A stretch of DNA of 64,000 bases from a virus. The notes beneath the pieces are model-generated. The model was given only the letters and a program-made list of their open reading frames with translations, was not told where the DNA came from and did no database searches. How positions within the stretch are numbered: position 1 is the stretch's first letter; every line of letters starts with the position of its first letter. The translations under genes and the position numbers were made by a program. Shown here piece by piece: positions 1,361 to 46,699 of this stretch. The stretch is taken from positions 1 to 64,000 of the IMG/VR virus record IMGVR_UViG_3300033146_000850; one strand, given 5' to 3'.

Positions 1361-1413
1361 ATAAAAATATAAATAATTAACAAAATTTTTAACTTTTTTA
1401 TTTGTGTGTGATA

Positions 1414-1421
1414 TATAAATA
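1414..1421 (+). promoter_or_regulatory. T4-type late promoter TATAAATA upstream of gp32
   Basis: Exact gp55 consensus in an intergenic position; may overlap a sigma70 extended -10. Confidence 0.55.
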
Positions 1422-20285: not shown

Positions 20286-20366
20286 TATTACATAGCTTAT
20301 TTTTATTATGAGTATTTTTTATTATGAGTGTATTTTTATTATTTAATACCTTTATAGGAGGGTATC

Positions 20367-21428: not shown

Positions 21429-21447
21429 GTTATAATCTATGTCAACT

Positions 21448-26551: not shown

Positions 26552-26560
26552 GGGGTATAT

Positions 26561-26866
26561 ATGGAAATAAAAATAATAACACATAATGATAAAATTGGTA
26601 TAATTTTCTTAAATAACGATAGTGATATTTTATATTTAAATAGATTAGAGGCAAAAATACTCGTAAAACAAGCAGAATTGGCTCTAGAGCAACAAAAAAG
26701 TGAAACTAGTGTGTTTGGTAAGGACGGGTTGTTTTCGTTCATTAAACAGGATAATAACAATTATTTGTTATCAATATATATAAACGAGAGATATTCTACA
26801 GGTAAAATATTAACATTTCAAAACGTTAAAGAAATTATATTTTTAGTAAATAACGAATTAATTTAA
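26561..26866 (+). CDS. Hypothetical protein
   Basis: 101-aa ORF with G-rich RBS. Confidence 0.65.
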   Translation: MEIKIITHNDKIGIIFLNNDSDILYLNRLEAKILVKQAELALEQQKSETSVFGKDGLFSFIKQDNNNYLLSIYINERYSTGKILTFQNVKEIIFLVNNELI

Positions 26867-26878
26867 AGAGGTGATTAT

Positions 26879-27970: not shown

Positions 27971-28029
27971 AACTGGTTTTATTAAAAAACTAAATAAAAT
28001 TGTGAAATTCAACAAATGTGAGTAAAAAA

Positions 28030-31000
28030 ATGGCTAAATTATCAAACAATACAGTATTAGATGTTGTAGGGAAACAGGGACTTGGTGTATCTTCTACTAA
28101 TAATGATAAAAATTATTATGAAGAGTTATATAGTTGGAGACCCCAGCTTACTGGTGATGATATTTTTACAGATATTGTTCCTAATGCTGATAACCCATCT
28201 GAGGCAGATGATAATGTTATTAATAATCCAACCATTTTAGAAAAATTAACAGATTATACATTAACAGAGCTACCATCATCAAATGGTCAAGGATATGGTA
28301 TATTTACAACACCTGGAGATACATCGTCTGATAGATTATATGATTTTTTAACCCCACAAAAATTTGGAAATGGATATGCTTGTATATTGAAAAATAATAC
28401 AACAATTATTCCATTGTCAGCAGGTCAATTTACAGTTGATTACGCTAATGGTATTATTAGATTTGATGTTGCTAGTACTCCATCATTTATGGGGTGGAGT
28501 AATTTGAATATTACCATATATAGATATATTGGTGAGACTGGTGGAGGTACTTCTGGAGGTGAGGGTTTTAATATGACTTTTACCAATAGTAACCTTGTTA
28601 ATGGTGTATTATCAGTTCCACACGGATTGGGAGCTATATATAATGTTATACATATAGCAATTAGGGATAATTTGAATGATAATATATATCCTGATGGTGT
28701 TAATTTTATAGATAATGATAATGCATCTTTAGATTTTAGTTCATTTAGTCCAATATCTGGAACTTGGGCGTTAACTGTTGGTATTGGCGGTGGAAGTGGT
28801 GGGACACCACCTATTATTGACCCTTTACAGATAGATGGTGAAACAAAAACACCATTATCTGGTAGTTTTCAATGGTTGAATAACACTATATCTGGTTTAC
28901 CAACATCTCACGATATAGAAATTGGTGAAAAGGTTGTTGCTGGTTACACTCTACCGTCTGTATTGTGGGTAAACACTGAATTATCAGAAAATGGAGGTGT
29001 AGAGTTTATATTAATACCAGAAACTGGAAATATTACTGATTATATAGTGACTGGACAAGAATTTATTGTGACTGGTTCAACGGCTAATGGTAATATATAT
29101 TCTATAGGTTCAGGTATATATTTAAATGGTAGTGCGATTGCAAATTATCACGTTGCAGAGATAGTTTTTGTATCTGGAACACCTGTTTCGTTACCAACAT
29201 ATCCAACAATTGAGGTTCCAACATCTGTGGATAGGGTTGGTGGTGCACAGAATGTTGAAATAGAATGTTTAGTTGAAAGTGTAATGCCAACATCGATTGA
29301 TATTGATGAGTCAACTCAAACAACTATAAATATAACATCTATTAATATATATTGTAAACACTATATTAAACACGGTAATTTTGGGATAGGTAAAGATAAC
29401 CCTGATTATTTATTGGATGTTGATGGAACATGTAAATTAAAAAATATAATATCTGATAATATTATTGTTGAATTTCCTGAAAGTGAACCTATAGATAATG
29501 GTGAGCTTGTGTTTTTTGGTTCAGATAAAGATAAAAATTTAATAACTAGTAAAGATTATTACAAGGGATTTGATGAAACATCCTTAAATTTTGATGATTT
29601 ATCAACAAATAGTGTATTAACAGGTGGAACCGTCCTTTACGGTTCAGATATTGTTGTTGAGTTTTTACAGTATCCATCCGCTGTAGATTCATTAAGGGCT
29701 TATACGATAGATATTGATGGTACTAATCTAGGAACACCTTTTGAGATAGGAAATTCTACTGGGGCAAAAGTATTCCCCTTACGATACAATTCAAATGATG
29801 ATAACCGAACTATAGAGGATGGTGACAAAGAATTTGGTGTGGTAAATGTGATGAGTGCGAGTAGTGGTCAATTATATTTAGGATATTATAGATGTAATAC
29901 AGACTTAACAATAACACAATTGAAAATATATGATTATTCTATAAGTCTAGGTGCAAACTGGGAATTACAGACTGTTATACCGATAACACATAAAATATTA
30001 ACTAATACAACAATAAGATATTTTGTTATAGTTGTTAAAGACCCATCAAACAATTCTTGGATTAAATTTTGTAGTTACGACCCAGCAACAGATACAGAAA
30101 TAATAGGTGATAATATAGATATAGGCATTCAATATGACCCTAATAACAATATATTTGCACATTATAGGGTTAGTCCAAACACCTTTAGACTTATGTTTCA
30201 AACATCTTCGGGTATAATGTTGATGAATATAGATATTAACCCAACAACTTATAATATGATTAATCCACCTGTAATTGAATACGTATTTGGACAACCTACT
30301 GGAAAATTAATGTATGTTGATTTTGACGATACTTATATTGGAACTGATTCTTTTGATATTATTGCTGTGCAGTATAATGTTGGAAGTGTGTCTATATTTG
30401 ATATTCATTGGAAGGGTGGTTTAGTATCAGCTTTGGAATATAATATGTTGGATAAAAGTTGTTATTATCACGGTGTTAATTATTTTAATTGCAGACGAAT
30501 GGGTTTAACTAATAAAATAGTGTTATATGGACATCACACAGATAGAGCGGTTGGTATTGTTGATGTTAAAGATAAGACTTATAAAGTAGTTGGATTATTT
30601 GGCAACTGGGATTATATGAATGAGACAGAATCTCAAAATTGTGTAAGGGTATTGTCAGATAAAATTTTATATATTGAGTCATATGATAGTTATAAATTTG
30701 TGAAATTTTATGATAATGCAGTGGGTCTTTGTGTGAGCAATATTAATAATCAAATACAAGTCATATTTGGGGGAAAATATACATCGACAACCCCAAGGTA
30801 TGATGTTGGGTCTAATATCTCATTAGGACCAGTTCCTTTGTTAGGAATGGGTGGCTCAACATTAGGGTTCTCAAATAAATATAGTTGTGGGATAAATTTA
30901 GCAACCCCAATATCATCAACCGAGATATTATTTAATCCTAGTATTAATACAATATCTAGTTCAAATACTCTTAAATTGGATAAACATTCAACATTTAGAG

Positions 31001-31422
31001 AACAACAATCTTCTGGTGTTGATGGTGGTACTTTTACATCAGGGTCTTGGGTAACAAGAACTCTGAATAATATGGATTCAAATATTGGGGCTGTATTATC
31101 TGGCAATCAATTTACACTACCTAAAGGTAAATATTCAATTAATGCATCCGCACCTGCATATATGGTTGATAAACATCAAATACAATTATTTAATGTAGAT
31201 TCTGGTGTAGTTAGTATATTGGGAACAACTGAAACATCTGTAAATGGTGCATATGCTCAAAATAGAAGTTTTATAAGTGGTGTTATTGACATTATTAACC
31301 CAACTACATTTGAGATACAACATAGATGTGAAACCACAGTTGCTAATAATGGATTGGGTATTGGTGTTTCGTGGGGTGATAATGTTTTTACAATTGTTGA
31401 AATTGAAAGGTTAGGAGATTAA
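28030..31422 (+). CDS. Large tail-fibre-like protein
   Basis: ACTAAATA at 27989; GNFGIGKDNPDYLLDVDG fibre motif; C-terminal GGTFTSGSWVTRTLN..FTLPKGKY domain. Confidence 0.7.
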   Translation: MAKLSNNTVLDVVGKQGLGVSSTNNDKNYYEELYSWRPQLTGDDIFTDIVPNADNPSEADDNVINNPTILEKLTDYTLTELPSSNGQGYGIFTTPGDTSSDRLYDFLTPQKFGNGYACILKNNTTIIPLSAGQFTVDYANGIIRFDVASTPSFMGWSNLNITIYRYIGETGGGTSGGEGFNMTFTNSNLVNGVLSVPHGLGAIYNVIHIAIRDNLNDNIYPDGVNFIDNDNASLDFSSFSPISGTWALTVGIGGGSGGTPPIIDPLQIDGETKTPLSGSFQWLNNTISGLPTSHDIEIGEKVVAGYTLPSVLWVNTELSENGGVEFILIPETGNITDYIVTGQEFIVTGSTANGNIYSIGSGIYLNGSAIANYHVAEIVFVSGTPVSLPTYPTIEVPTSVDRVGGAQNVEIECLVESVMPTSIDIDESTQTTINITSINIYCKHYIKHGNFGIGKDNPDYLLDVDGTCKLKNIISDNIIVEFPESEPIDNGELVFFGSDKDKNLITSKDYYKGFDETSLNFDDLSTNSVLTGGTVLYGSDIVVEFLQYPSAVDSLRAYTIDIDGTNLGTPFEIGNSTGAKVFPLRYNSNDDNRTIEDGDKEFGVVNVMSASSGQLYLGYYRCNTDLTITQLKIYDYSISLGANWELQTVIPITHKILTNTTIRYFVIVVKDPSNNSWIKFCSYDPATDTEIIGDNIDIGIQYDPNNNIFAHYRVSPNTFRLMFQTSSGIMLMNIDINPTTYNMINPPVIEYVFGQPTGKLMYVDFDDTYIGTDSFDIIAVQYNVGSVSIFDIHWKGGLVSALEYNMLDKSCYYHGVNYFNCRRMGLTNKIVLYGHHTDRAVGIVDVKDKTYKVVGLFGNWDYMNETESQNCVRVLSDKILYIESYDSYKFVKFYDNAVGLCVSNINNQIQVIFGGKYTSTTPRYDVGSNISLGPVPLLGMGGSTLGFSNKYSCGINLATPISSTEILFNPSINTISSSNTLKLDKHSTFREQQSSGVDGGTFTSGSWVTRTLNNMDSNIGAVLSGNQFTLPKGKYSINASAPAYMVDKHQIQLFNVDSGVVSILGTTETSVNGAYAQNRSFISGVIDIINPTTFEIQHRCETTVANNGLGIGVSWGDNVFTIVEIERLGD

Positions 31423-31425
31423 TAT

Positions 31426-33774
31426 ATGAAAAGCGGTGTTATTGATTTAAAAAATACACAGAGTGATAATTCCCCAGATATAGGATATGTTAGAATTAGA
31501 GCTACTGACTCTGGTGTTGTTCAACTAATATTGGATGATGGAACTATAAAAAATATTTCTTCACCGTGGGAATTACCAGTTGAAAACAATACAGTAACTG
31601 ACCCTTCGGCATTATCACCATCACTATGGAATAGATATATTGTGGCTGAGGATGCTATAGGTGATTGGACAGGTCAAGATGATAATATTGCACAATGGAA
31701 TGGTGCTGGTTGGGAGTTTATAACCCCTGAACACGGTTGGATTGTGTATGTTAAAAGTGATAATCTATTATGGAGTTTTGATGGTGTTGATTGGGTTATT
31801 TCTAGTGGTGGTGGAAGTACTGGTGGGGTATATACCGAGGAATTTATTATTGGTGGTAGTAATCCAACATATACTGTTAATCACGAATTAGAAAGTAAAA
31901 ATTTAAACATTACTGCATATGAGGTTCCATCTTATAATAAAATATCTTTAGAATCAACTAATGACTCAATGAATACCACTACATTTTATGGAGATGGTGA
32001 GGCATTATTAGTTAGAGTTATTTTGGATGTTGGTGGAGGGTCAATGGAAGGAATAACTCCATTTGATGCTATAGAAGTTACATATTCAGACTTAACAACC
32101 ATTATAGGTAATATGGCTTTAAAAATAGGAAATTATTATAAAATAACAGATTTTAGAACTGTAAATGATGCTGGATTAGGAATGGTTAATACCGCACAAA
32201 TTGAAGAAATAATAGTTCAAGCTATTTCTGAAAACGTACTTGACCAACGAGCTTATTCAGCTGAGTTTATGTATGAGATTTTATATTATAATATTAATAA
32301 TACTGGTGAATCTACCCACGGGGTCATTACATATAGAGAAAATTTAGAACAAAATATAAAAACAGTGTTTGACTTTCGAGGTTGTCAATTTGCTAGGGTG
32401 AAATTAGACCCGTCAAGTCTTGTTAGTTGGAGTTCAGGGACAACATATACAACCTCTGATATTGTATTATATAATGATACATTGTGGAAGCCGATTCATA
32501 ACACTGGAAACGTAACAACAGAGGCTCCAGGAACTAATAGATATTGGGTTAAATTATTTGAAGAGGTATCACATAATTATACTTTATTTGAAACTACAAG
32601 TGGCTGGGCTAGTAGTTTAACTTTAGATGTTGGGAGTTATAAATTATTCCCAGTATTTGGGCAACCAAATATATCTGGGGAAACTTCGACTTTTAATATT
32701 AATCAATTTACAAATATTACTTGTAATTCAAATAATGTTATATTTATGTCAACATCAGGGACACACGATAATATCACGGTGGAAAGATATTGTGATGGTT
32801 TAACAATAGCCTCTAAGAATATTAGCAAGGCATATTTTGGGAGTGGGTCTAATAATACATCTACATCATATAGTGGATATATTTACAACGGTATTTTTAG
32901 TGATGGGATTAAAAATAGCTCTATTGATAAGATAGATGGTGTTAATATTAGAAAAGCTAGAAATTCAGTATTAGGGTCAGTATTTTCATCTGACCTTGAT
33001 GATATAAATACCTGTTATCTACAAAATATAAATAGATGTCAGTTTGGAGCATTTACTAGACAATTTTATGGAGGGGATATCTCTAATACAATAGTAGGAA
33101 TTGAATCATATAACAATGAAGTTGTATATTCTAGCTACAATACATTTGGAATGCGTTTTGAAAATAATAAAATCGAGACTGTTGAATTTAGAAATAATGT
33201 TATGGGGAATTATTTTAGGAGATTTATAATTCCTGAAACGATATCCTTTTTTAGTAATACTTTTGGTAATGAGGTAGGACATCATAGTATTGATTTTATT
33301 GTTAATTCACACTGGTATAGAAATAAGTTTGGAGATATGTGTTTTAGTCATGGTGGTTCATCAATAGGTGGTATGTGCACATACGTAACGGTGGGAAGCA
33401 ATCTTTACAATTTAAATGTAGGTGGTGATTTCCAAAACTCTAGTTTTGGTTCTGGTTGTAGAGATATTAATGTTACAAATGGGATAAATGGTGTTAATAT
33501 TGGAAGTAGTTGTGGACTCTTCAATTTAGGTGGACATTTTAGTCGATGTAATATTGCAGATGGTTGTTTAAATATTACAGTGCCAAGTGGGGTAAATCTA
33601 AATATGGTTGATTTTGGTGTTGGGTCAACTAATATAGATTTCACAGGAGCAACATCATCTTCACACATTGCTCAAAGTTACAATAAAGAGATTATAACTA
33701 GGGTTGATACATCCAAAGTTCTAAGATATACCGATAACTTAAACACTTTAATTTATGATTCAATTATAGGATAA
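31426..33774 (+). CDS. Fibre-like protein with DUF2793-like N-terminal module and beta-solenoid C-terminus
   Basis: RYIVAEDAIGDWTGQDDNIAQWNGAGWEF; N.FG/S.FG repeats. Confidence 0.7.
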   Translation: MKSGVIDLKNTQSDNSPDIGYVRIRATDSGVVQLILDDGTIKNISSPWELPVENNTVTDPSALSPSLWNRYIVAEDAIGDWTGQDDNIAQWNGAGWEFITPEHGWIVYVKSDNLLWSFDGVDWVISSGGGSTGGVYTEEFIIGGSNPTYTVNHELESKNLNITAYEVPSYNKISLESTNDSMNTTTFYGDGEALLVRVILDVGGGSMEGITPFDAIEVTYSDLTTIIGNMALKIGNYYKITDFRTVNDAGLGMVNTAQIEEIIVQAISENVLDQRAYSAEFMYEILYYNINNTGESTHGVITYRENLEQNIKTVFDFRGCQFARVKLDPSSLVSWSSGTTYTTSDIVLYNDTLWKPIHNTGNVTTEAPGTNRYWVKLFEEVSHNYTLFETTSGWASSLTLDVGSYKLFPVFGQPNISGETSTFNINQFTNITCNSNNVIFMSTSGTHDNITVERYCDGLTIASKNISKAYFGSGSNNTSTSYSGYIYNGIFSDGIKNSSIDKIDGVNIRKARNSVLGSVFSSDLDDINTCYLQNINRCQFGAFTRQFYGGDISNTIVGIESYNNEVVYSSYNTFGMRFENNKIETVEFRNNVMGNYFRRFIIPETISFFSNTFGNEVGHHSIDFIVNSHWYRNKFGDMCFSHGGSSIGGMCTYVTVGSNLYNLNVGGDFQNSSFGSGCRDINVTNGINGVNIGSSCGLFNLGGHFSRCNIADGCLNITVPSGVNLNMVDFGVGSTNIDFTGATSSSHIAQSYNKEIITRVDTSKVLRYTDNLNTLIYDSIIG

Positions 33775-33778
33775 TAAT

Positions 33779-34285
33779 ATGAAAATTAAAAATCAGATAA
33801 AACCATTACATAATTTACCACCGATACAATATCAAATATTACCTAGTATTATTAGTAGGGATTCAATACCTAATAGTGTTAGACATCTAGGTATGATTTG
33901 TTATGTAATCAGTGAAAATACAACTTATAGATTAGTTGGGGGGTTGACCAACTCTGATTGGGAGGAAGTTAAAACAGGTGGTGGAGGATATACTACTACA
34001 TTTGTTGATTCTGATTTGACAAGTGGATATATTGTATTTGAACATAATCTAAATGCGGAGAATAGTGTATGTAATGTTACTATTAGAAATAATATAAATA
34101 GACATATTATACCGGATGATATTATAGAGGTTGATTCTAACCATATAAGGGTTGATTTATCTATGATGCAACCCTTAATTGGTGAGTGGGCTGTTATAAT
34201 TAACTGTGTTGAATATGATGATATAGTAGTTAATAAAGAGCGATTAATAAATAGTTTTATAATAAATGATAATAATTTAGGTTAA
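33779..34285 (+). CDS. Small virion-associated protein
   Basis: RDSIP..RHLGMICYV module plus the HNL module shared with neighbours. Confidence 0.65.
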   Translation: MKIKNQIKPLHNLPPIQYQILPSIISRDSIPNSVRHLGMICYVISENTTYRLVGGLTNSDWEEVKTGGGGYTTTFVDSDLTSGYIVFEHNLNAENSVCNVTIRNNINRHIIPDDIIEVDSNHIRVDLSMMQPLIGEWAVIINCVEYDDIVVNKERLINSFIINDNNLG

Positions 34286-34297
34286 GGAGAATTTAAT

Positions 34298-35848
34298 ATG
34301 TCTATTGTTTTACAAAATAAATCAAAATCGAGGTTAGCTGTTGATATCAATAGTTCGGCAATGTCTTTGACCGTTGATAGTGGAACAGGTGATAATTTTG
34401 CAACTTGTGATTCGGAATCACATATGTGGATTACTATAATTGACCAGACAACATATGGTGGTGAGTCTGAAATACTAGAAATTGTAAAAGTTTCACCTAG
34501 AAGTGGAGACACTTTTACAATAGTTGAACGTGGTGCAGAGGGAACCACTGCTAGAGCCTTTGTTATTGGGGACATTGTAGAGCAAAGAATTACAGCACAA
34601 ACATTATTTGATTTGGGTGTATCAACAAATAAAAATCGAAAGTATGTAGATGAAATATATATTACTTTGAAACGACATGAGGAATTTTCAAATTCATTTG
34701 AAATGGAAAGATTTAATGATAAATATGCACCTCAACTAATTAGTAATTGGGATTCATATTGGGGTTCACGTTTAAAAGTTCAAGTTGAGGATATTACCAC
34801 ACACGTGATATATGATAATTTGAGTTTTGACACCACTGATGATATGTATAATTGGGGTTCGGCACATTGTACTCTTGATGCATTGTCTACATATAATGAG
34901 ACATTGATTGCTAGACCTTACGAGGTTATTGATTCATCTATTCCAACACCTAGTAAAATATATGGATTGAATAGATTTTATTCCTCCATCAAAGGTAGAA
35001 AAAATTATAATAATAATTTGATATGCACTGCTAATAATTCAAATCTGTTATCCGCTTGTACTACTATTTTTAATTCAGTATGGGGTACTAGTTTAACTGA
35101 TATGGATATGGATATTCATAGCATATGGTTAGGCAGACCTAAAAAAAATAAATATTCTAACCCACCATTTTTAAAAGATGGTCAATATGTTGTAAATTTT
35201 GATACGGCTAATGCCCCAACAAGACGTGAATATAATATTAATGATGGTGTTTTTTATGATAACTCGTTTGACCAATATAGTAATGTTAGTAGCACCGTTA
35301 GATATGCTTTTATTGAAACTGGTAATTATAATGTTAATATTACTGGGGTTGATGAATGGACTAGTATCAATTCTAGTATCAAGGATAGTGGTTCATCATA
35401 TATAATAGCTTGTGGTGTTCAAAATAATAATGCAAATGAACGAAAAGCAGTTGTGATTAAACCATTAGGAATAGACCAGGTTGTAATGATGATGCCAGAC
35501 TTTGAAATATATGATTTTGAGATTGTATTTTATAATAATGATATGCAAAATCATATATATGTAAAATCTTTTACCGATGATACAGATTTTATAGATACAT
35601 TTATTGATATTGACGGTGGTAAAATGTTAATGAATAGCTCCGAGTGGTTATCTGTAGATATTAATAGTCAGACTTATGTTTCACATAATTCTACTGGATA
35701 TAATGATTTACCTTGGTCAACTGTTAGGTTTAGGTTGAGGAATAAAATTACTAAAGAAATTTCAGAATTAAGTGAATCAGGTATAGTAACGGAGAAAAAA
35801 CATAACCTAAAACAATTACAAATGAAAATAAAATCTTTTAATTCCTAA
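34298..35848 (+). CDS. Virion-associated protein; C-terminal region paralogous to 40080..41483
   Basis: N-terminal EIVKV..RSGDTFTIVERGAEGT anchor-type motif; KIYGLNR..SIKG and IKPLGID. Confidence 0.7.
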   Translation: MSIVLQNKSKSRLAVDINSSAMSLTVDSGTGDNFATCDSESHMWITIIDQTTYGGESEILEIVKVSPRSGDTFTIVERGAEGTTARAFVIGDIVEQRITAQTLFDLGVSTNKNRKYVDEIYITLKRHEEFSNSFEMERFNDKYAPQLISNWDSYWGSRLKVQVEDITTHVIYDNLSFDTTDDMYNWGSAHCTLDALSTYNETLIARPYEVIDSSIPTPSKIYGLNRFYSSIKGRKNYNNNLICTANNSNLLSACTTIFNSVWGTSLTDMDMDIHSIWLGRPKKNKYSNPPFLKDGQYVVNFDTANAPTRREYNINDGVFYDNSFDQYSNVSSTVRYAFIETGNYNVNITGVDEWTSINSSIKDSGSSYIIACGVQNNNANERKAVVIKPLGIDQVVMMMPDFEIYDFEIVFYNNDMQNHIYVKSFTDDTDFIDTFIDIDGGKMLMNSSEWLSVDINSQTYVSHNSTGYNDLPWSTVRFRLRNKITKEISELSESGIVTEKKHNLKQLQMKIKSFNS

Positions 35849-35868
35849 ATTAAAATAATAAATATAAT

Positions 35869-36003
35869 AAAATAATGAATGGGAATGTTTAAAATACCCT
35901 TGTTCAGTAAAGAGGTCCGATTAAAATCCCTTTGTTCAGTAAGGTGGTCCGTTTAAAATCCCCTTGTTCAGTAAGGTGTTATTTTCCATTCATTATTTTT
36001 CTT
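35869..36003 (+). ncRNA. Candidate structured RNA: three 32-nt hairpin repeats enclosed by a 17-bp closing stem
   Basis: Units at 35889, 35921 and 35953 with invariant TTGTTCAGTAA. Closing stem 35869-35885 pairs with 35983-35999. AATAAATA at 35857. Transcription is inferred. Confidence 0.55.
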
Positions 36004-36014
36004 TAAATATAAAT

Positions 36015-36022
36015 CATAAATA
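36015..36022 (+). promoter_or_regulatory. Late promoter-like CATAAATA
   Basis: Lies between the hairpin array and the next gene. Confidence 0.55.
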
Positions 36023-36053
36023 TAATTAAAAGATATAAAACTTAGAGGGTATT

Positions 36054-38603
36054 ATGGGTAAACATTCTAGTGTTGATATTTATAAAAGTAATAATTCATT
36101 TGCACCTGAATCCGATTTTATAAGGATTAAAGGTGGTAGAGATAATAAAATATATTTCATTTTGGATAATGGGGATGAATATTTCATAAGTAGTCCGTGG
36201 GAGTTACCTGTGATATCTCAAACGGTAATTGACCCGTCAACGATAACCCCTGTAATAAATGACAAATATATAATACCTATAAACGCAACAGGCGATTGGG
36301 TAGGTCAGGATTCAAATATTGCTAATTGGAATGGTACTGTTTGGGAATTTATCACACCCGAAAAAAGTTGGGTGACGTATATTCAAGATACTAATTTATT
36401 AGCTGGATTTGATGGTAATGAATGGAAATTAATGTCCGTTCCAACTGATGAGATGACATTAGAGGTTTTGAATGATGAGATTACAATATTAGGTATTGAT
36501 ACTATTATAAACAGTAACGGTGTGAGTTTAGACCCCTCACACACACCAATGTCAAACCCAGATGCCGAATTAGTGACAAGAGGTTTTGTTGATTCTATCT
36601 CTACATCTGTTGATTATGCAACTATTGATTTAATACCAGCATTACCTAAAATGGGTGTTTGTAATTCAGAGAGAGATTTATATCATGAGGCTTGGAACCC
36701 TAAAATATTCACTAATATGACTGGGGTTGGTATGCACGATGACCCATTAAACGGTGTTGTATATATTCCTAAAAATATGACTACTTTATTGTATTGCTAT
36801 ACCTCTCCACCATCTCCTGTGCCAGCGGTTGATAATACACCAATATTAGACCCTGGAACATATCGGTTATATTCAAATATAGATTTAGTTCCATATGGTT
36901 TGAATATGACCGAGAATGTGTTATATTCAGGAGCAAGAAGTATAAATTTCACATCTAGATTTGAACAAGGAAGATGGCTACACGAGGCAGTTGTACCGTG
37001 GTCTGATTTTAGACTAAGTAGAGTATTAGTTAATACAGGACATCCAATGTTCTTTTATCAATTAATTTTATACGATGGATACCCTGGGACAAATACTGAT
37101 ATAACTATTACTGGAATTGATAGGATAATTAATGCTGATAAATGGAGTGTTGATGGGTTTATAACTAAAGCTATTCCTGAAAATGCCAATAATGAACTTG
37201 CTACTAGAAAATATATCGACAATACTAAAAACAATCCTGACAATATAACATTAGAGGTTAATACTGATAATAATATAATATGTTCTAATGAAAATGATAT
37301 ACAACTTGTATTAAATGATGCTTATGGACACAATATAGCCACTCACGGGTATCATTGGGTAACAACTACACCTGGGGTACCTACTCTTACAAATGGCACC
37401 TTAGAACTAAATTTACCAGATGATGGAAGTGGATTTTGTCAAGCATATCAGGGACAGGTGTTTATTGGTGATTCTAATAATGCTGGTATAAACGAGGAAA
37501 CTTGGAATGCATATGTTCATACAAATATGGATGTTAGAATTGATGGTATAAATTTTTGGTTATATACTAATAATTATGAGTTGGAGGTTGATGAAGTAAT
37601 TGAACTTAGTGATGGTAGTTTTTTACTTAGGTCAATGGTTCCAAAAGGAGAGTATAAGGAAATACTTGGATGTTGGGCAAGAATTGAAAGTAGCACCGTT
37701 AATATTACTAATCAACCGTGGTATCGTTTTGTTGATTGTAACCACTACCCTCCAAAGCAAATTATAAAGGTTAAAGAAATTGACCTTATAATTGACGATG
37801 ACGATGAATCGATTGATGGTTCAGATACACCAATGTCAGATGCTCATCATGAGCTTGTCACTAGAGCAAAAGTCGAAAGTCTTGTAAATAATAATACACA
37901 CTGGAACAAATCTGGCACAGAATTAAATCCGTCTGATGCTTTAGTGGATGTAATAAATCTGGAAATGACCCAGAATGGGTATACACAGATAAAAATTCGT
38001 AATAATAATGACACTGGAAATGGAGCAGGAGCTTTATTGGAGCTGAAAGGTTCTGGAGCAGATTATACAAATAATGCTTACTTCGGAATTTATAGTCCAG
38101 CCTTCTGGCTTTCACAATTAGCTGGAAAAGCCGTATTAATGTCAGATAGAGATGTTGTAATTGGAACAGTTGACTCAACAGGAGATATTAACTTTCTTAT
38201 TGGAAATTCTTACAGCTCACCAGTTGTAGTTGGACATCTAAATCAAGACGGATTCCATTTAGATGCACTTCAAACAACATCTGTGCATCCAGCAAGCTAT
38301 TATAACCTTTTTGTTGATGCAAGTACTGGTTTAATATATGCCAGTAACACAGGAGCAACTGGTAATACTCCAGCCACGGAAACTTTCACAATAGATGCTA
38401 CTATTGTTACAAATGGATATATAGACCTTTCAAACGCACCTAATCCAGACAATCATAATAGTGTTAACTGGAATGGTACGATATTATTTGAAGGAGCTAC
38501 CGAAGATTATACAATTACAGGAAATAGAGTGACTTTTCATACTAGTAATGGTGGAGTAGAACTCATTACTGGAATGAAAATACAAATTAAATATAAATAT
38601 TAG
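36054..38603 (+). CDS. Fibre-like protein with DUF2793-like module; N-terminus paralogous to 31426..33774
   Basis: ISSPWELPV shared; KYIIP.NATGDWVGQDSNIANWNG; three internal ID.II...EL.TR repeats. Confidence 0.7.
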   Translation: MGKHSSVDIYKSNNSFAPESDFIRIKGGRDNKIYFILDNGDEYFISSPWELPVISQTVIDPSTITPVINDKYIIPINATGDWVGQDSNIANWNGTVWEFITPEKSWVTYIQDTNLLAGFDGNEWKLMSVPTDEMTLEVLNDEITILGIDTIINSNGVSLDPSHTPMSNPDAELVTRGFVDSISTSVDYATIDLIPALPKMGVCNSERDLYHEAWNPKIFTNMTGVGMHDDPLNGVVYIPKNMTTLLYCYTSPPSPVPAVDNTPILDPGTYRLYSNIDLVPYGLNMTENVLYSGARSINFTSRFEQGRWLHEAVVPWSDFRLSRVLVNTGHPMFFYQLILYDGYPGTNTDITITGIDRIINADKWSVDGFITKAIPENANNELATRKYIDNTKNNPDNITLEVNTDNNIICSNENDIQLVLNDAYGHNIATHGYHWVTTTPGVPTLTNGTLELNLPDDGSGFCQAYQGQVFIGDSNNAGINEETWNAYVHTNMDVRIDGINFWLYTNNYELEVDEVIELSDGSFLLRSMVPKGEYKEILGCWARIESSTVNITNQPWYRFVDCNHYPPKQIIKVKEIDLIIDDDDESIDGSDTPMSDAHHELVTRAKVESLVNNNTHWNKSGTELNPSDALVDVINLEMTQNGYTQIKIRNNNDTGNGAGALLELKGSGADYTNNAYFGIYSPAFWLSQLAGKAVLMSDRDVVIGTVDSTGDINFLIGNSYSSPVVVGHLNQDGFHLDALQTTSVHPASYYNLFVDASTGLIYASNTGATGNTPATETFTIDATIVTNGYIDLSNAPNPDNHNSVNWNGTILFEGATEDYTITGNRVTFHTSNGGVELITGMKIQIKYKY

Positions 38604-38606
38604 AGG

Positions 38607-38840
38607 TTGTTAGTTATTATGATTATTGATACAGATGAGCGAGAAATTAAAATTAAAGATTTGAGTTTAGCAGCATTTATAAGGATGAAAAATAATATAC
38701 TTATAGATGTTAGGGATGGTTTTTTTATATTCCATTCTAAATTAACAGAGCGAGAGTGGAAAATAGAATTTTTAAAAAGTGAGAGTAGTAAGTTTGATAG
38801 GGAGGTTAGAGATTTAAGATGGTGTATAAAAAATAATTAA
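38607..38840 (+). CDS. Small DUF5659-like protein
   Basis: IKDLSLAAFI motif; TATAAATA at 38592. Confidence 0.55.
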   Translation: MLVIMIIDTDEREIKIKDLSLAAFIRMKNNILIDVRDGFFIFHSKLTEREWKIEFLKSESSKFDREVRDLRWCIKNN

Positions 38841-38851
38841 AGGAGGTCAAA

Positions 38852-40024
38852 ATGGCTTTATTAAGAGGTTCTTCACAAATTTTAGATTTAAGTATCCCGA
38901 TTGGTAAACTAGAATCTGATTTTTTAAATGGTGTAAATTGGGACATTACAGACGGAAACAACAATGCTACTATTACAGGGCTACAAGCAGGAACTAGTGC
39001 TAATGATGCTGTGAATTATCAACAGCTTATGGATTTAATTAACGGTCAGAGAGTCAGAGAAGTAAGAGTTTTCGCAACATCTAACGTTACTCTAAATGGT
39101 GCACACACGGAAGACGGCATAGCACTTAATACTGGAGACAGAATTGCGTGTTTTAATCAGACTACTTCTACCGAGGACGGTATTTATGTCGTTGACACAA
39201 CAGGAGCTTGGGCAAGAGCTACTAATTTTGATACTAATTTTGAAGCAAGAAGTTGTAAAATTCTTGTTTCAGAAGGAACTGCAAGGGAAAACACTCAATG
39301 GTTTATTACTAATGACAAAGGAAACGATGTTGTAGGAACAGCTGATTTAGTAGCTGTACAAACTGGTAGTTCAGGAATGATGACTGCTGATAATGGTTTA
39401 ACAATGACTGGAAGCAATATTCAGTTAGGTGGAGCATTAAATCAGAATACTACCATCACGACTGCGACTAATTCCTTTACTTTTTCTGGTACAGGGGTAG
39501 GCGGTACTTTTAATGTTCATGCAAATGATGCTGTAACCATTTGGGGAAACCAGGCTCAAATTATATTCAACAATCATTTAGATTTAGATGCCAATTTGAC
39601 TATCCGTTTTAATGACGATGAAATTAAATCATCATCAGTTCTGAGTGCAATTCCATTTTCAATGACAGCAACGACTGATTATGGTAATGGTAATGGTACA
39701 TCAGCAGGAGATGTTATTGACCAATTCAGAGCCGATTTTACAGATGATGCTATTGTTAATGCTTTAGTTGAGCTTAAAGCTATAGTTGATAATCCAGAAG
39801 TGATAATAGAGGAAAGTATTACTGTAGCCAACGGAACATCAATCACTCTTACAAATGGAACTACTACATCTGTAATTAAAGATGTATTTCTTAATGGTAA
39901 TAGACTTGTTCCAACAACCGAATTTACAGTCGGAGATAATGGAACATACAGAACAATCACAGAAGTAATCGCAAATCAGGATTTTACAGATGGCGATGTT
40001 GTTACAGTTAAGTATGTAGCTTAA
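38852..40024 (+). CDS. Virion fibre/decoration protein
   Basis: ITGLQAGT.ANDAVNYQQL; VRVFATSNVTLNG..DG..L..GDRI..NQ....DGIYVV module; AGGAGG RBS. Confidence 0.75.
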   Translation: MALLRGSSQILDLSIPIGKLESDFLNGVNWDITDGNNNATITGLQAGTSANDAVNYQQLMDLINGQRVREVRVFATSNVTLNGAHTEDGIALNTGDRIACFNQTTSTEDGIYVVDTTGAWARATNFDTNFEARSCKILVSEGTARENTQWFITNDKGNDVVGTADLVAVQTGSSGMMTADNGLTMTGSNIQLGGALNQNTTITTATNSFTFSGTGVGGTFNVHANDAVTIWGNQAQIIFNNHLDLDANLTIRFNDDEIKSSSVLSAIPFSMTATTDYGNGNGTSAGDVIDQFRADFTDDAIVNALVELKAIVDNPEVIIEESITVANGTSITLTNGTTTSVIKDVFLNGNRLVPTTEFTVGDNGTYRTITEVIANQDFTDGDVVTVKYVA

Positions 40025-40038
40025 TGTTTAATAGGTTT

Positions 40039-40064
40039 AGCTCCTACCTAAAAGGAGCTTTTTT
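40039..40064 (+). terminator. Intrinsic terminator
   Basis: agctcct-acctaaa-aggagct followed by T run. Confidence 0.85.
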
Positions 40065-40079
40065 ATATAGGAGGATATA

Positions 40080-41483
40080 GTGGGACAAATAAGAAATTCA
40101 CAAATTATAAATAATGACCTAACAGGGGCTAGTATCAATAGAAACTTTAGGTTTTTTGATGAAAGAGAAATACCTATCAGTGCAGGTGAAATTAGATTTT
40201 GGCAAGGTGTGTTCTGGAGGGTTATATCAGATATAACTATAACTGAAACTGGAGGCTCAATTCCTAAAGAGGGTGATATGACATATTCCCCTGATTCTCA
40301 ACCTATTTATTGGCAAAAAATACCTAATTATGGGGTTGATAGGATTGTTTTTGAAAGTATGGATATACCTGGATATAATATAACAACTAACATCTTGAAT
40401 GGTGATTGTATTCAACCAATGGCTAGTAGAATGCATAATAATTGGGAAGTATATGGTGAAAATTTATTATTTGATGTTACTGATGAAGGTGGTAATTCGT
40501 GGTATGGTTTAACTTTTCCAACTATTACAGATTATATCACGTGGCATAATAGTCAAACATTTATATCTATGGTTCACGTTGAAATATATGGGTTGTTAAA
40601 TAGTAAAAAAAATAATTATCATAAGATTTATGGTAGAAATGAGGGTTTATCTATAATTAAGGGGTGTGATATTAACGGTAGAAGTAATTATCATAAAAAT
40701 ATATGTTTATTTCAATCGAATTGGGATGAAAGAAGCACATTTGCAATGGATATATTAAATAGATTAACAGGAACAACACCATCCAGTTCGACCGATGCCC
40801 AAAGATGCATACATTCACCAGGAAATCAATCAATTTATACATTATACCAAACACTAAACACACCTAATACTATACATTTTAATGGTGGATTAAATTCAAA
40901 TAAAAGATGTTATAATCCATCAACTTTAGGGTTTAACTCTATTAATTCGGGGGATGTTTTTCTACCAATGCTTGGTGGTAATGGATTTTATGCTATTACA
41001 CAAAATACAGGTGGGTGGTCATTTATAGGTGTTCAAAATCTTGTTGATAATAGATATATTGACAGTGTAAGTCTTGTTAAAGTATATGGATTTCAAAGAA
41101 ATGACGGTTGTGTTATTGCTATAGTTAAACCAGTAGGTCAAGATTCATGGAGAATATCTTGGAAAGAACCTGTAAATAATAAAAAAATAATAATAGGATT
41201 TTATAATAGGGATGATAAAATGATATTAAAAGATGTTACATCTTTAGTTGATTCGTTTTCCAATGGTGGAACATCATTTTTAATACCTAAAAGTGTATTG
41301 AGTGCTGGTAATAAATCATCAACTAATTATAATTTATCAAAAATGACCGTTAGGAATATGGAAATTTTTATATCTGATGGTGATGGATTTATTTCAAAAG
41401 TACCACATTCTATAGATTGGATATTGAAAGCAAATGGTGCAAAGGCATATTTATTACTCAATAATAATCATTCATATAATTAA
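40080..41483 (+). CDS. Virion-associated protein; paralogue of 34298..35848
   Basis: GTG start with AGGAGG; KIYGRNE..IIKG and VKPVGQD. Confidence 0.7.
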   Translation: MGQIRNSQIINNDLTGASINRNFRFFDEREIPISAGEIRFWQGVFWRVISDITITETGGSIPKEGDMTYSPDSQPIYWQKIPNYGVDRIVFESMDIPGYNITTNILNGDCIQPMASRMHNNWEVYGENLLFDVTDEGGNSWYGLTFPTITDYITWHNSQTFISMVHVEIYGLLNSKKNNYHKIYGRNEGLSIIKGCDINGRSNYHKNICLFQSNWDERSTFAMDILNRLTGTTPSSSTDAQRCIHSPGNQSIYTLYQTLNTPNTIHFNGGLNSNKRCYNPSTLGFNSINSGDVFLPMLGGNGFYAITQNTGGWSFIGVQNLVDNRYIDSVSLVKVYGFQRNDGCVIAIVKPVGQDSWRISWKEPVNNKKIIIGFYNRDDKMILKDVTSLVDSFSNGGTSFLIPKSVLSAGNKSSTNYNLSKMTVRNMEIFISDGDGFISKVPHSIDWILKANGAKAYLLLNNNHSYN

Positions 41484-41496
41484 AAACATAAATAAT

Positions 41497-41600
41497 ATTG
41501 ATTAGGGTTGTAATACTAAGATACCCTAACTATAAAGGTATGATACTAAAAAACCTTAACTAAAAGGATTTAATACTAAAAAATCCTAACTAATTTTTAT
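41497..41600 (+). ncRNA. Candidate structured RNA or leader: three 30-nt hairpin repeats with covarying stems and ATACTAA loop
   Basis: Units at 41501, 41531 and 41561; stems AGGGT/ACCCT, AAGGT/ACCTT, AGGAT/ATCCT; CATAAATA at 41487. Confidence 0.6.
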
Positions 41601-41627
41601 TTAAATATTAAAAGGGGGTGACCACAT

Positions 41628-43658
41628 ATGATAACGTATAAACTTTGGAGTGAGGTTGACGCTGTAACATCAGGTGATATTGTAGTATATGGTAATGAAT
41701 TATGGGAGGCTACTTCTAATATTTCACCTGCTTATTATGGAGATAAAAGTAATACTCCAACATTCAGTCCAAATTGGAAAAAATCAAATAATACTCAATA
41801 TATTAATGTAAAATATATTAATCATTTTATAGAAGTTAAAATTGACACATCTGTTGATGATGTTACATTCATATTACCTGACCCATCTCTTAATAATAGA
41901 AAAGATATACACGTAGCTTTAAATACATCTGGCAATACATTGACAATTGAGACAAATACACCAACTGTCAAGATTAATAATAGTATAACTAGTATGGATT
42001 TTAATGTATCCGCTGATAGTATAGTACTTCATCCATCTAGTGATATAAATTATCAAATACGCTCGGAGGTTGCCGATAAACCACCTTTAGTTTTTTGTTG
42101 TAGACCAGGGTCAACGCAATCTTTTACAACTACATTAACCAATATTAATTATGATACAATATTATTAGATAAAGGTTCATTTGCTCATCTATCATCTGGG
42201 GAAATATATTTCGATATAGGTGGTATTTATAATATATCTGTATCATATGGTGGAAGAGTTACAAATAATAGTAGAACAGAGGTTAATGGATATTTACAAA
42301 TAAATAAAGGTAGTGGTTTTGTAAATGTTCCTGATTTACAACTTAATGCGTATCATAGACATATTAGTCAAGGTGCTGATGGTGACAGTCAAACAATATC
42401 ATTAGAAATAGAAGCTGGTGATATTATTCGTGTTCAAGTTGTTGGTGATGGTGGTTCTATTGAGACTATCCCTGCTAGTTGTACTATAAATATCACGGTA
42501 TCTAAAGGGTTGCGAGGTGAAAAAGGGGAAAAAGGTGAGCAAGGTTTTGATGGAGCAGATGGTGACATTACCTGGGAAGGTGGTTGGACAGCTGGAACAT
42601 ATCAAGAAAATATGGCAGTTGAATATAATGGGTCATCTTTTGTTTGTATTCAAAATGGAACGAATATTAATCCTGGCACACCAGACACCCCAAATTCTGG
42701 GTGGGAATTGCTTGCAAAAAAGGGGTCTGATGGTTCAGGGGCTACCATTAACGTATCCGAAGATGGAACTATGGCTACCAATACCCCACACGGAACTCTT
42801 AATTTCAAAAAAGGAGTTATTATTAGTGATGCTGGCGGAGGCGTTGCTGATATAAATATAGTGAATGTTCAACCTTATATTGGTAATAATGATGATGTTT
42901 TATTATTTATAAATGTAACTGGGGATATTTTTATCGCTGGGGATAATTTTGATAATAATATGTCTGTTGATTTAGGAAGTGATGTTACTGTAAATTATAT
43001 TGAGGCGTTGACACCAAATAATTTAAAAATTAACTATACTACAAGTTCAAGCATTCAATCCGCTGTTAATATTGAATTTACAAGAAACGGTATTCCATCA
43101 TTTGGTCACACTATTACTTGTACGGTCACTGATGTTATAATTGGAAATGGTGTTGCTGGAACGTGGGTTGAAAATTTCAACACATCATCCTGGAGTACAC
43201 CAAGATGGAATGTTGTAGAAGGTAGTAGTTTAACTAATTTTTTCCATACAGGAGTATCTACACCATCAGGTAATACTGGAGCAACTAGTGCATATGATGG
43301 TAATTTCTTATACGGTGAGAGGTCTAACCCTAATAATGGAGTTGGTAGCTCATACAATGCATATGCAGAAACTTCTGATTTTCATGATTTGACACAAGTT
43401 AGCTTTATGCTTCATAAATGGTCAAGTACACCATCAAATATGGGTGACCTAGTAATATATTCACAAAATTCTAATAACACGTGGACGGAAAGATGGAGAC
43501 ATACTGGAAATGAACAGACAGCACAAGGTGACGCTTTTGTTCAAATTACTCTTAATGCAATTCCCTGGGATTGTAAAGGAATTAGAATAATGTTCGAGGC
43601 GGTTTCTAGTTATATGTCTGATATTTGTATCGATGATGTCGAAATTATTTCAATTTAA
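41628..43658 (+). CDS. Multi-domain fibre protein: short collagen-like segment, carbohydrate-binding-like modules, C-terminal MAM-like domain
   Basis: GLRGEKGEKGEQGFDGADG; W.AGTY....VEYNGSSFVC; FLYGERS...SDICIDDVEI. Confidence 0.7.
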   Translation: MITYKLWSEVDAVTSGDIVVYGNELWEATSNISPAYYGDKSNTPTFSPNWKKSNNTQYINVKYINHFIEVKIDTSVDDVTFILPDPSLNNRKDIHVALNTSGNTLTIETNTPTVKINNSITSMDFNVSADSIVLHPSSDINYQIRSEVADKPPLVFCCRPGSTQSFTTTLTNINYDTILLDKGSFAHLSSGEIYFDIGGIYNISVSYGGRVTNNSRTEVNGYLQINKGSGFVNVPDLQLNAYHRHISQGADGDSQTISLEIEAGDIIRVQVVGDGGSIETIPASCTINITVSKGLRGEKGEKGEQGFDGADGDITWEGGWTAGTYQENMAVEYNGSSFVCIQNGTNINPGTPDTPNSGWELLAKKGSDGSGATINVSEDGTMATNTPHGTLNFKKGVIISDAGGGVADINIVNVQPYIGNNDDVLLFINVTGDIFIAGDNFDNNMSVDLGSDVTVNYIEALTPNNLKINYTTSSSIQSAVNIEFTRNGIPSFGHTITCTVTDVIIGNGVAGTWVENFNTSSWSTPRWNVVEGSSLTNFFHTGVSTPSGNTGATSAYDGNFLYGERSNPNNGVGSSYNAYAETSDFHDLTQVSFMLHKWSSTPSNMGDLVIYSQNSNNTWTERWRHTGNEQTAQGDAFVQITLNAIPWDCKGIRIMFEAVSSYMSDICIDDVEIISI

Positions 43659-43722: not shown

Positions 43723-44706
43723 ATGAAGTTAGAAAATATTGGATTCTATAGTTTATATGATGAACGTGTTAAAAATGTTAGTCCAAAATCTCAAATGAAA
43801 AGATGTGAAATGATTATTACTGAATATTGTAATTTCAAATGTCCATATTGTAGAGGTTTGGATAATGGGATATATGGTGATAGGAAAAAGAAAGAATTAT
43901 CTTTTGATGAAATTAAAAGAAATATTGATTTGTGGTGTTTAAATGAACCTCTTGAAAATATTAGATTTTCAGGTGGTGAGCCAACTTTACATTCAGACAT
44001 AGTCAACATTGTTAAATATGCTAAATCTAAAAAAATTAAAAGAATAGCAATATCAACTAATGGGTCTAATAACATTGATTTATATAAAGAACTTATTGAT
44101 GCTGGTGTTAATGATTTTTCTATATCTTTGGATGCTAATTGTTCATCAGATGGCGATATGCTGGCTGGTTACATTGAGGGTTCTTGGAATATAGTTGTTG
44201 AAAATATTAAAATATTATCAAAATTGACATATGTAACGGTTGGTGTGGTGTTATCACCTGATAATATATCCAACACTGTATCAACCATTAATTTTGCACA
44301 CGACTTAGGAGTTGATGATATTAGAATTATATCATCCGCACAATGGAATAAACCTATTCCTGGATTAAAAAAGGTTAGTAAAGAGGTTCGGGATGCTCAT
44401 CCAATCTTAAATTATAGAATAGAACATTTTGCAAATGGTAGAAATGTTAGAGGAATAAAAGCAACTGATTCTAATAAATGTTCATTGGTTTTAGATGATA
44501 GTGTTATTGCTGGTGATTATCATTTTCCTTGTGTAATATATATGAGAGAGAAGGGTGCTCCTATTGGTAAAATAAATACTAATATGAGAAATGATAGAGT
44601 TAAATGGTTTGAAACCCATAACACTTATTTAGATGATATTTGTAGAAATAATTGTTTAGACGTTTGTATAGACTATAATAACAAATATAATTGTTATAAA
44701 CATTAA
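43723..44706 (+). CDS. Radical SAM protein with C-terminal Cys cluster (SPASM/twitch-like)
   Basis: CNFKCPYC, FSGGEP, ISTNGS, SISLD; C-terminal PC..C..CLDVC. Confidence 0.9.
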   Translation: MKLENIGFYSLYDERVKNVSPKSQMKRCEMIITEYCNFKCPYCRGLDNGIYGDRKKKELSFDEIKRNIDLWCLNEPLENIRFSGGEPTLHSDIVNIVKYAKSKKIKRIAISTNGSNNIDLYKELIDAGVNDFSISLDANCSSDGDMLAGYIEGSWNIVVENIKILSKLTYVTVGVVLSPDNISNTVSTINFAHDLGVDDIRIISSAQWNKPIPGLKKVSKEVRDAHPILNYRIEHFANGRNVRGIKATDSNKCSLVLDDSVIAGDYHFPCVIYMREKGAPIGKINTNMRNDRVKWFETHNTYLDDICRNNCLDVCIDYNNKYNCYKH

Positions 44707-46559: not shown

Positions 46560-46699
46560 ATTACCACCTAAAATCAAGTTAATAACGTCTCATATCTTAT
46601 TTATATCTATAAGATTTAAAAGAAAATTTAAAATTTATTTTGTTTATGGTCAATATTATGATAAATAATATAGTGGAATGATTATTATTGAGGATTATT

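Follow-up and report, generated by a model that had tools for sequence, protein, structure and literature searches.

Between two tail-fibre genes of an uncultured, marine, T4-like phage lies a 131-nt element in which a 17-bp closing stem encloses three tandem 32-nt repeats. The closing stem is non-random. The repeats differ from one another in a compensatory way only when the purine-rich strand of each unit pairs with the pyrimidine-rich strand of the next unit, cyclically. This neighbour-unit pairing, which would give a three-way junction of three 6-bp helices, is a modelled arrangement that goes beyond the preliminary description of the locus. Tentatively, and with confidence just short of an even chance, we read the element as a structured RNA module with clamped ends and a junction, which would be transcribed late from the + strand and would act on the fibre transcripts, possibly being released as a small RNA.

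The window analysed here, a stretch of 64,000 nt (64 kb), is the first part of a 126,063-nt IMG/VR record with 28% G+C and an estimated completeness of 56%. The 126-kb record encodes T4-type core genes (a gp32-like SSB, primase, helicases, clamp loader, a RegA-like repressor, a gp46/47-like exonuclease, PhoH, and GroEL). The clamp loader is at most 36% identical to those of cultured phages, the top matches being marine Methylophilales and Synechococcus myoviruses. PhoH shares 35–44% identity with eight IMG/VR loci, and the closest relatives are thus distant. The element sits in a 205-nt gap (35849–36053) between the two tail-fibre genes (Table 1), and the genes around it lie on the + strand throughout. 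A coding reading of the element was rejected: its ORFs are merely 21–25 aa, and a Shine-Dalgarno-like sequence was not seen upstream. A check of the phage record for DGRs and retrons found no reverse transcriptase, and a reading of the element as part of either was rejected for want of that gene and of a second copy of the element.

Table 1. Positions of the three-repeat element, its modelled parts, the neighbouring genes, and the second hairpin array.
Feature	Position	Strand	Description
Upstream tail-fibre gene	34298–35848	+	516 aa; PHROG tail-fibre N-terminus
Promoter P1, late-promoter-like	35857–35868	+	AATAAATATAAT; 9 nt beyond the upstream fibre gene's stop codon
Closing stem, 5′ arm	35869–35885	+	AAAATAATGAATGGGAA; mean pair probability 0.94 at 37 °C
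Internal-loop strand	35886–35895	+	TGTTTAAAAT; putative counterpart of the two hairpin loops, from register II
Three tandem 32-nt units	35889–35984	+	Repeat search, TRF; U3 extends into the 3′ arm
Helix a, pyrimidine strand (unit 1)	35896–35901	+	ACCCTT; pairs with 35973–35979
Junction linkers GTTCAGT	35902–35908, 35934–35940, 35966–35972	+	Register II model
Hairpin b	35909–35933	+	AAAGAGG / loop TCCGATTAAAAT / CCCTTT
Hairpin c	35941–35965	+	AAGGTGG / loop TCCGTTTAAAAT / CCCCTT
Helix a, purine strand R3	35973–35979	+	AAGGTGT
Closing stem, 3′ arm	35983–35999	+	TTTCCATTCATTATTTT; inverted-repeat search
T-rich tail	36000–36007	+	TCTTTAAA; U-rich tract together with TTATTTT of the arm
Promoter P2, late-promoter-like	36015–36026	+	CATAAATATAAT; 31 nt before the ATG at 36054
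Ribosome-binding site and ATG, downstream fibre gene	36044–36056	+	AGAGGGTATT
Downstream tail-fibre gene	36054–38603	+	849 aa; DUF2793
Second array	41487–41587	+	CATAAATA (41487–41494), then hairpins 41502–41529, 41535–41557, and 41565–41587

The three units begin at 35889 (U1), 35921 (U2), and 35953 (U3), a spacing of 32 + 32 nt, and are 100, 84, and 75% identical to the reference copy. TRF delimits the array as 35887–35978 (period 32, 2.9 copies, 88% matches, score 149). All three units carry the motif UUAAAAU, and the core GTTCAGTAA occurs three times in the 126-kb record, every time inside this array. (GTTCAGT repeats at 88390–88498 belong to a coding 9-aa acidic repeat.) The closing stem comprises 16 Watson-Crick pairs and G35883·T35985, which is G·U on the + strand and C·A on the − strand. 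When the 205-nt gap was shuffled 500 times with dinucleotides preserved, no inverted repeat of at least 17 arose (maximum 16), and the longest across the 23 other intergenic gaps is 15. The element is single copy in the 126-kb record, and the arm sequence AATGAATGGGAA is present once. The preliminary description had already recognized the 3 × 32-nt repeats at these starting points, the 17-bp enclosing stem, and the single G-U pair favouring the + strand, all of which the repeat searches and shuffles bear out; its size of about 135 nt is corrected here to 131 nt. That one G·U pair, together with the direction of the genes and promoters, favours the + strand.

Within each unit, positions 8–13 form a pyrimidine strand (P) and positions 21–27 a purine strand (R), with position 25 bulged. 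In what we term register II, the R strand of each unit pairs with the P strand of the next, cyclically: R1×P2, R2×P3, and R3×P1. Five substitutions separate the units from their consensus over positions 1–28 (U1-8, U1-23, U1-25, U2-11, and U3-27). Register II turns four of the five into two exactly compensated pairs (23-11: A-T, G-C, G-C; 27-8: G-C, G-C, T-A), the fifth being the bulge, and the three resulting 6-bp helices are Watson-Crick at 18 of 18 pairs. Pairing within units gives 14 Watson-Crick pairs, one G·U, and three mismatches in a rigid scheme; allowing shifts and a bulge leaves its count of Watson-Crick pairs at 14. The nested matchings apart from register II, four with the intra-unit scheme included, reach 14–16. 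The CCTT/AAGG hairpin around GTTCAGT that was first proposed for each repeat is thus the less well supported register, at 14 against 18 Watson-Crick pairs. The bases left without a partner are identical in the two registers.

When five random substitutions were placed anywhere, two compensated positions together with perfect helices arose in 25 of 200,000 cases. With four random stem substitutions, and with shifts and one bulge allowed, 18 pairs were reached by any nested matching in 757 of 100,000 cases and by register II itself in 205; the intra-unit register attained its observed 14 in 26,955. The register II picture places, above the 17-bp clamp, an asymmetric internal loop (TGTTTAAAAT opposite TAT), then helix a, and then the junction with hairpins b and c. 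Helix a has six Watson-Crick pairs, with T35977 bulged and A35896-T35979 compensated; in hairpin b, A35911-T35931 is compensated against the G-C of hairpin c. The (A/T)TTAAAAT copies would then occupy two 12-nt hairpin loops and the internal loop.

Nearest-neighbour energies fail to single out the junction. The whole element folds only moderately better than its shuffles, with the closing stem supplying most of the signal: −29.1 kcal/mol on the + strand (z −2.9; 3 of 200 shuffles as good), and −26.5 kcal/mol on the − strand (z −2.3; 5 of 200). Register II stands at −24.1 kcal/mol, compared with −28.6 for the MFE structure and −14.4 for the rigid intra-unit model. The MFE structure keeps hairpin c, nested in P2×R3, as the only one of helices a, b, and c that it shares, and has unit 1 fold on itself as a perfect hairpin in a shifted register. 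At 37 °C, the clamp pairs with a probability of 0.94, helices a, b, and c with 0.28, 0.06, and 0.31, and the intra-unit helices with 0.00, 0.19, and 0.07. Summed helix energies are not significant in either register, 808 of 3000 simulations doing as well as register II and 1678 of 3000 as well as the intra-unit register; replacements of G-C by A-U retain pairing yet cost energy. The compensation is also partly open to a second reading because unit 1, with shifts allowed, forms a perfect 6-bp intra-unit hairpin; two changes in unit 1 can equally be read as creating that shifted hairpin. All of this evidence comes from one genome, since no homologue to test for covariation was found. Genome-wide, pairs of neighbouring hairpins occur at the chance level (7 observed, 1–9 across 20 shuffles).

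Late-promoter-like motifs bracket the element. P1 and P2 carry an identical 11-mer, ATAAATATAAT (at 35858 and 36016), which has seven copies in the 126 kb, all seven on the + strand. Four of the seven, P1 among them, lie at most 200 nt upstream of a start codon; genes follow the copies at 6687 and 78792, and the 11-mer stands upstream of the genes at 6754, 36054, and 78829. The shorter motif ATAAATA occurs overall at chance frequency across this A+T-rich genome, and, in the interval 15–44 nt before start codons, is about 10-fold enriched, the 15-nt bins there having 12 and 14 against an expected 1.3. Sixty ATAAATA motifs lie at most 200 nt upstream of 109 genes, mostly 15–45 nt before the ATG and with little structure between, so that the 31 nt from P2 to its ATG is the usual spacing in this genome. 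Long structured leaders are exceptional in this genome. The late promoter is given as TATAAATA for T4 and NATAAATA for cyanophages in the relevant sections of PMC2984593 and PMC3014915; the motifs flanking the element match it, and show the expected enrichment by position, as judged from sequence. Matches to σ70-like promoters in the region are near chance (13 vs 8.4, sd 2.7).

The 3′ end is less conventional. No canonical terminator was called in 35300–36500. An intrinsic terminator is a short, G+C-rich hairpin whose loop is small and after which a U-run comes at once; the closing stem is A+U-rich and encloses 97 nt, with a U-rich tract behind it. Ordinary G+C-rich terminators are found by eye elsewhere in the phage, in the gaps at 21429 and 90953. 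Among the sequencing runs listed as sharing words with the record, none is from RNA, and the contigs of one marine-sediment DNA run (short contigs, with 16% of the record's words) include none that spans the element. The late-promoter motifs on both flanks and the T-rich tail that had been described earlier thus hold, the former through the shared 11-mer and the ATAAATA enrichment. Two further suggestions, that the downstream gene has its own promoter and that the element is a self-contained unit, find support at sequence level: the first in the P2 motif, and the second in the P1 motif, the clamped ends, and the U-rich run.

From this layout we infer transcription, its start and end, and an effect on the fibre transcripts, as follows. 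Late RNA polymerase would start at P1 (35857–35868), at about 35870 and the base of the closing stem; T4 late-promoter spacing, which we take to apply here, puts the start at the second base of that stem. The first 17 nt would pair with 35983–35999, locking the ends of the 131-nt domain together. Neighbouring repeats would then pair (R1×P2, R2×P3, and R3×P1) into a three-way junction of pseudo-threefold symmetry, its helices joined by three GUUCAGU linkers left single-stranded, and three UUAAAAU loops, two hairpin and one internal, would be displayed. The most likely job would be in cis, the stem and U-run ending or insulating the transcript of the upstream fibre gene. Transcripts started at P1 would gain a base-paired, nuclease-resistant 5′ domain, and P2 would supply a short-leader mRNA of the downstream fibre gene. 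Were termination at the U-run efficient, the module would accumulate as a discrete RNA of about 131–135 nt.

Such a role has precedents in outline. Stem-loops at the 5′ terminus and hairpins at the 3′ end stabilise bacterial and phage mRNAs, and hairpins of the T7 type are processed by RNase III. The element resembles these in its long terminal helix at a transcript end or between cistrons, and its 17-bp stem would be stacked on helix a across the asymmetric internal loop. Stabilising and processing hairpins are simple; to our knowledge, none is built of three repeats forming a junction. The T4 genes with leader structures (e, soc, 49, and I-TevI) offer a second likeness: positions 36046–36053, in the downstream ribosome-binding site, are complementary to 35893–35900 in U1, although a complement of 8 nt is reached by 31 of 1000 shuffles. 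Unlike the T4 arrangements, the predicted fold does not sequester the downstream ribosome-binding site, and in the predicted fold of the P1 transcript the 8-nt complement is unused.

The same genome contains a second array of three hairpins (41502–41587; period about 30 nt), upstream of the tail-fibre gene 41628–43658. It starts 7 nt after the late-promoter motif CATAAATA; no other ATAAATA lies within 200 nt of that gene's start, and the array is therefore probably its 5′ leader, as far as sequence can tell. Its stems (AGGGT/ACCCT, AAGGT/ACCTT, and AGGAT/ATCCT) are perfect, with two compensated positions, and its loops of 13–14 nt contain TAATACTAA(A/G)A. It is the only run of at least three perfect hairpins in the genome. 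The fold of this array is no better than that of shuffles (z 0.06 and −0.09), and an Rfam search over it gave chance-level matches only. Both arrays have a purine strand 5′, an A/U-rich loop of 12–14 nt ending in TAAAA(T/A), a pyrimidine strand 3′, and a spacer of 5–7 nt. They thus look alike in build, a likeness of layout rather than demonstrated homology.

The second array weighs on the question of whether the element has any function. It may be functionless repeat DNA, left by slippage that copied a terminator-like hairpin in tandem, with arms kept complementary by templated correction of quasi-palindromes during replication rather than by selection; we give this a minor but appreciable chance. 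Templated correction in DNA could yield compensated arms without RNA function, and the low divergence of the units would fit a recent duplication. The element exists in one copy and lacks relatives, and the thermodynamic signal is weak outside the closing stem. Slippage and correction account poorly for four compensated positions in two independent arrays whose stems show no change without compensation, or for end strands (P of unit 1 and R3) that pair together and close the junction. Nor would it be expected to put a 17-bp clamp exactly at the expected transcript start, or to produce the same layout twice, each time before a fibre gene.

The element belongs to no known RNA family and is an orphan with no detected homologue. 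Rfam 15 gave no match at gathering score in the whole 64-kb window, and over 35840–36060 only chance-level matches (E 3–9). No DNA match to the element was found in the phages collection. A scan for the unit pattern returned no stretches in viral contigs, seven matches in the metagenome set, and one in 185,579 species genomes, all of them single and attributable to chance; neither of the latter two sets holds a host repeat array resembling the unit. A two-core pattern found five viral-contig stretches, all unrelated repeats with shorter units. A triple-GTTCAGT pattern found 112 stretches; among those read by script, none has a 32/32 period or the loop or stem motifs, and most have a period of 30 or 33, multiples of 3, and are probably coding repeats. 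The flanking fibre proteins have no relatives among the viral contigs, and cultured phages match just the N-terminal 7–19% of the downstream one. TRF found no similar array in eight PhoH-related loci, where the sole 30-nt repeat lies inside an ORF. A covariance search in related phages, suggested in the preliminary description, was run with a model built from five hairpins and gave nothing significant: three matches in the eight related loci (E 0.26–4.7), and six in five whole relative records (E 0.28–4.7), none in tandem. In the phage's own genome, only three of the training hairpins scored well, the other four matches having E > 2.

The preliminary description had compared the element with the ToxI antitoxins of type III toxin systems. 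This comparison leads to a different reading, in which an RNA of about 131 nt with three identical motifs would act in trans as a decoy or sponge, titrating a factor that binds or cuts RNA, for which a host type III toxin, a host anticodon nuclease, and the phage's own RegA repressor are candidates. Such an RNA would fit the stand-alone build: a promoter of its own, ends that are clamped, a U-run, and another promoter serving the next gene. In the systems described in PMC5086642, the repeats number 34 nt × 2.9 in ToxI_Bt and 35 nt × 2.8 in antiQ, with 34–36 nt across the ToxIN family. The element, at 32 nt × 2.9 copies, comes close to ToxI_Bt and antiQ; it agrees with the antitoxin repeat criterion (34–45 nt, about 2–5.5 copies), slightly under ToxIN lengths. 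Element and antitoxin alike consist of non-coding direct repeats in tandem, about 32–36 nt long and about three in number, with an A-rich motif per unit, and both have an upstream promoter and a downstream hairpin with a U-run, as far as that source describes them (PMC5086642). The AAAAU in every unit includes AA/AU and A/AAA, reported there as cut sites of type III toxins (PMC5086642), and phage-borne ToxI mimics are on record (PMC5086642; PMC3475682).

Several observations tell against this antitoxin likeness. ToxI monomers fold independently, each as a pseudoknot; the units of the element would pair mutually in a closed junction with a 17-bp clamp. The compensated pairs span the A-rich would-be cut site, so that the partners of a pair would end up in different monomers, and cleavage there would split them, which argues against independent monomers. 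The gene downstream encodes a DUF2793 tail-fibre protein and not a toxin, and ToxN (PF13958) has no match in the 126-kb record, itself 56% complete; a phage mimic does not require a ToxN/AbiQ-type gene after its array. Rfam revealed no likeness to a known antitoxin at E ≤ 10. Pseudoknots lie outside what the folding programs predict; by eye, no loop-tail complementarity indicative of one was seen. With no Rfam match, no ToxN in 126 kb, and no pseudoknot found, the ToxI analogy is unsupported. A ToxI-like identity was rejected, the likeness being limited to unit length, copy number, and A-rich motif, and no host array matching the unit was found in the species genomes or the metagenome set.

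Two other likenesses might be taken to name a target. An 11-nt stretch of U2 (TTAAAATCCCT) recurs in the phage tRNA-Leu(UAA) (105984–106070 in the genome), where it lies in the anticodon loop and 3′ stem strand, a match equalled in 3 of 1000 shuffles and in 8 of 1989 random genome segments; the loops of the element have 12 nt, not 7. The core UUGUUCAGUAA agrees at 9 of 11 positions with the T4 RegA SELEX consensus as given in PMC3014915, and the phage encodes a RegA homologue at 55185–55616. Matches of that quality number 134 genome-wide, with about 0.03 expected per unit, and a RegA-site reading of the core was rejected as weak; RegA, moreover, also binds unstructured RNA. These two likenesses, and that to the ribosome-binding site, were all found post hoc and carry low weight. 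All told, we regard a trans-acting decoy as unlikely.

A related comparison is with Racrs (RNA anti-CRISPRs, or solitary repeat units), decoys that mimic CRISPR repeats, which by the definition in PMC10651486 are solitary and resemble the CRISPR repeat of the host. Like a Racr, the element is a candidate phage intergenic small RNA directly 3′ of a promoter, and its 32-nt unit falls in the length range of CRISPR repeats as given there (PMC10651486). Unlike a Racr, it consists of three abutting units without spacers. Since there was no Rfam match at E ≤ 10, none of the CRISPR-DR families that this library may include matched.

The repeats might instead work as DNA, either as 32-bp iterons of three helical turns or as an extruded cruciform, bound by protein, for example for replication or recombination or to load the clamp for late transcription. 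In favour are a period of exactly 32 bp, A+T-rich flanks, and inverted repeats capable of extrusion; in T4, origins lie within late regions. Compensated changes are unexpected in protein half-sites and make this reading less likely, and the G·T in the long stem, although tolerated in RNA, would not be tolerated on both strands of a cruciform. Genes for an initiator or a recombinase are absent nearby, and the core motif is nowhere else in the genome. We leave a DNA site only a small chance.

More ambitious is the proposal of a new class of phage non-coding RNA: a late, multivalent decoy with a clamped pseudo-threefold junction, in which UUAAAAU(C)CC would copy tRNA-Leu(UAA) and to which the second array would be a sister. 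Copying the anticodon loop and 3′ stem strand in this way could titrate a host tRNA-targeting nuclease, or an RNA-binding defence or repressor. The chance of this is slim.

The element also invites comparison with the PeSLs, promoter/stem-loop cassettes of T4-type phages, which according to PMC2839356 have σ70-type early promoters and a simple G/C-rich stem-loop, in about 50 copies per genome. The two share an intergenic promoter and stem-loop in a T4-like phage, and bracketing promoter repeats that could mediate module exchange (PMC2839356, PMC4122927). Unlike a PeSL, the element carries late motifs, occurs once, and is modelled with a junction made of repeats, and PeSL identity was rejected because its motifs are late-type and it is unique. 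Identity with a MITE or Correia-like element was rejected likewise: terminal repeats are present, but in single copy and with no abutting target-site duplication. A mobile or shuffled cassette, whether a MITE-like element ending in 17-bp inverted repeats or a module flanked by promoters and inserted by recombination between late promoters, as PeSLs are, could draw on those inverted repeats, on the 158-nt block bracketed by the direct repeat ATAAATATAAT, and on the normal promoter-to-ATG spacing that would remain without the block, but is hardly probable for an element that is single in this phage and found nowhere else, whose arms adjoin no target-site duplication, and whose promoters are not the σ70-type early ones, at about 50 per genome, of the PeSLs described in PMC2839356.

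The structured RNA module acting on fibre transcripts remains our preferred reading. At present it is a well-formed candidate, a predicted 131-nt transcript from a single uncultured genome, rather than an established finding. Few structured RNAs are known in T4-like phages, and most are unexplained; the roles of T4 RNAC and RNAD, for example, are described as unknown in PMC3014915. Should the fold prove real, an RNA junction made of repeats and clamped at its ends would represent a new architecture, and tandem duplication would be seen to make a closed multi-helix RNA in one step. Moreover, it would point to control or protection, at the RNA level, of the expression of tail fibres, the genes that set host range.

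A second tandem array lies before a tail-fibre gene (41628–43658). It comprises three hairpins, whose stems are compensated and whose loops share the conserved sequence TAATACTAA(A/G)A, and a late-promoter motif (ATAAATA-type) is found immediately 5' of it. The array is probably the 5' leader of this gene.

The tail-fibre cluster (24086–43658) is unusually large, and the N-termini of its products are paralogous. Fibre genes 31426 and 36054 share DUF2793; genes 24086 and 28018 share phrog_9417.

Features and their positions, in window coordinates or in those of the whole 126,063-nt record (genome)
Feature	Position	Remarks
Late-promoter motif, second tandem array and gap to gene	window 41487–41627	3 x ~30 nt
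Radical-SAM gene	window 43723–44706	after tail-fibre cluster
PhoH	window 45192–46577	phage-encoded
GroEL-type chaperonin	window 47652–49277	phage-encoded
RegA-type translational repressor	window 55185–55616	phage-encoded
Phage tRNA-Leu(UAA)	genome 105984–106070	ARAGORN

Other tandem repeats are present. Between a late-promoter motif and gene 20367 lies an intergenic 16-nt repeat (TATTTTTATTATGAGTA x 2.7; 20298–20342). Long ORFs contain in-frame repeats (12537–13186, 14468–14718, and 57811–58209; periods 45/135, 105, and 21/42/63/84), and a 27-nt repeat at genome 88390–88520, read in frame, encodes acidic EMGSVEGDV-type units.

An inverted duplication of 1.1–1.4 kb relates window positions 1–1419 to genome positions 98714–99824, the latter outside the window. 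The copies are 87–94% identical and ~97 kb apart; either the genome truly has a long inverted repeat here, or the duplication is a product of assembly. Within the duplication are T-rich 30–40-nt repeats (805–1009) and a (CGTG)n tract (1159–1202), the latter odd for a genome of 28% G+C.

Finally, the phage tRNA-Leu(UAA) has 11 nt in common with unit 2, the middle repeat of the 131-nt element: the shared residues lie in the anticodon loop and the 3' strand of its stem.
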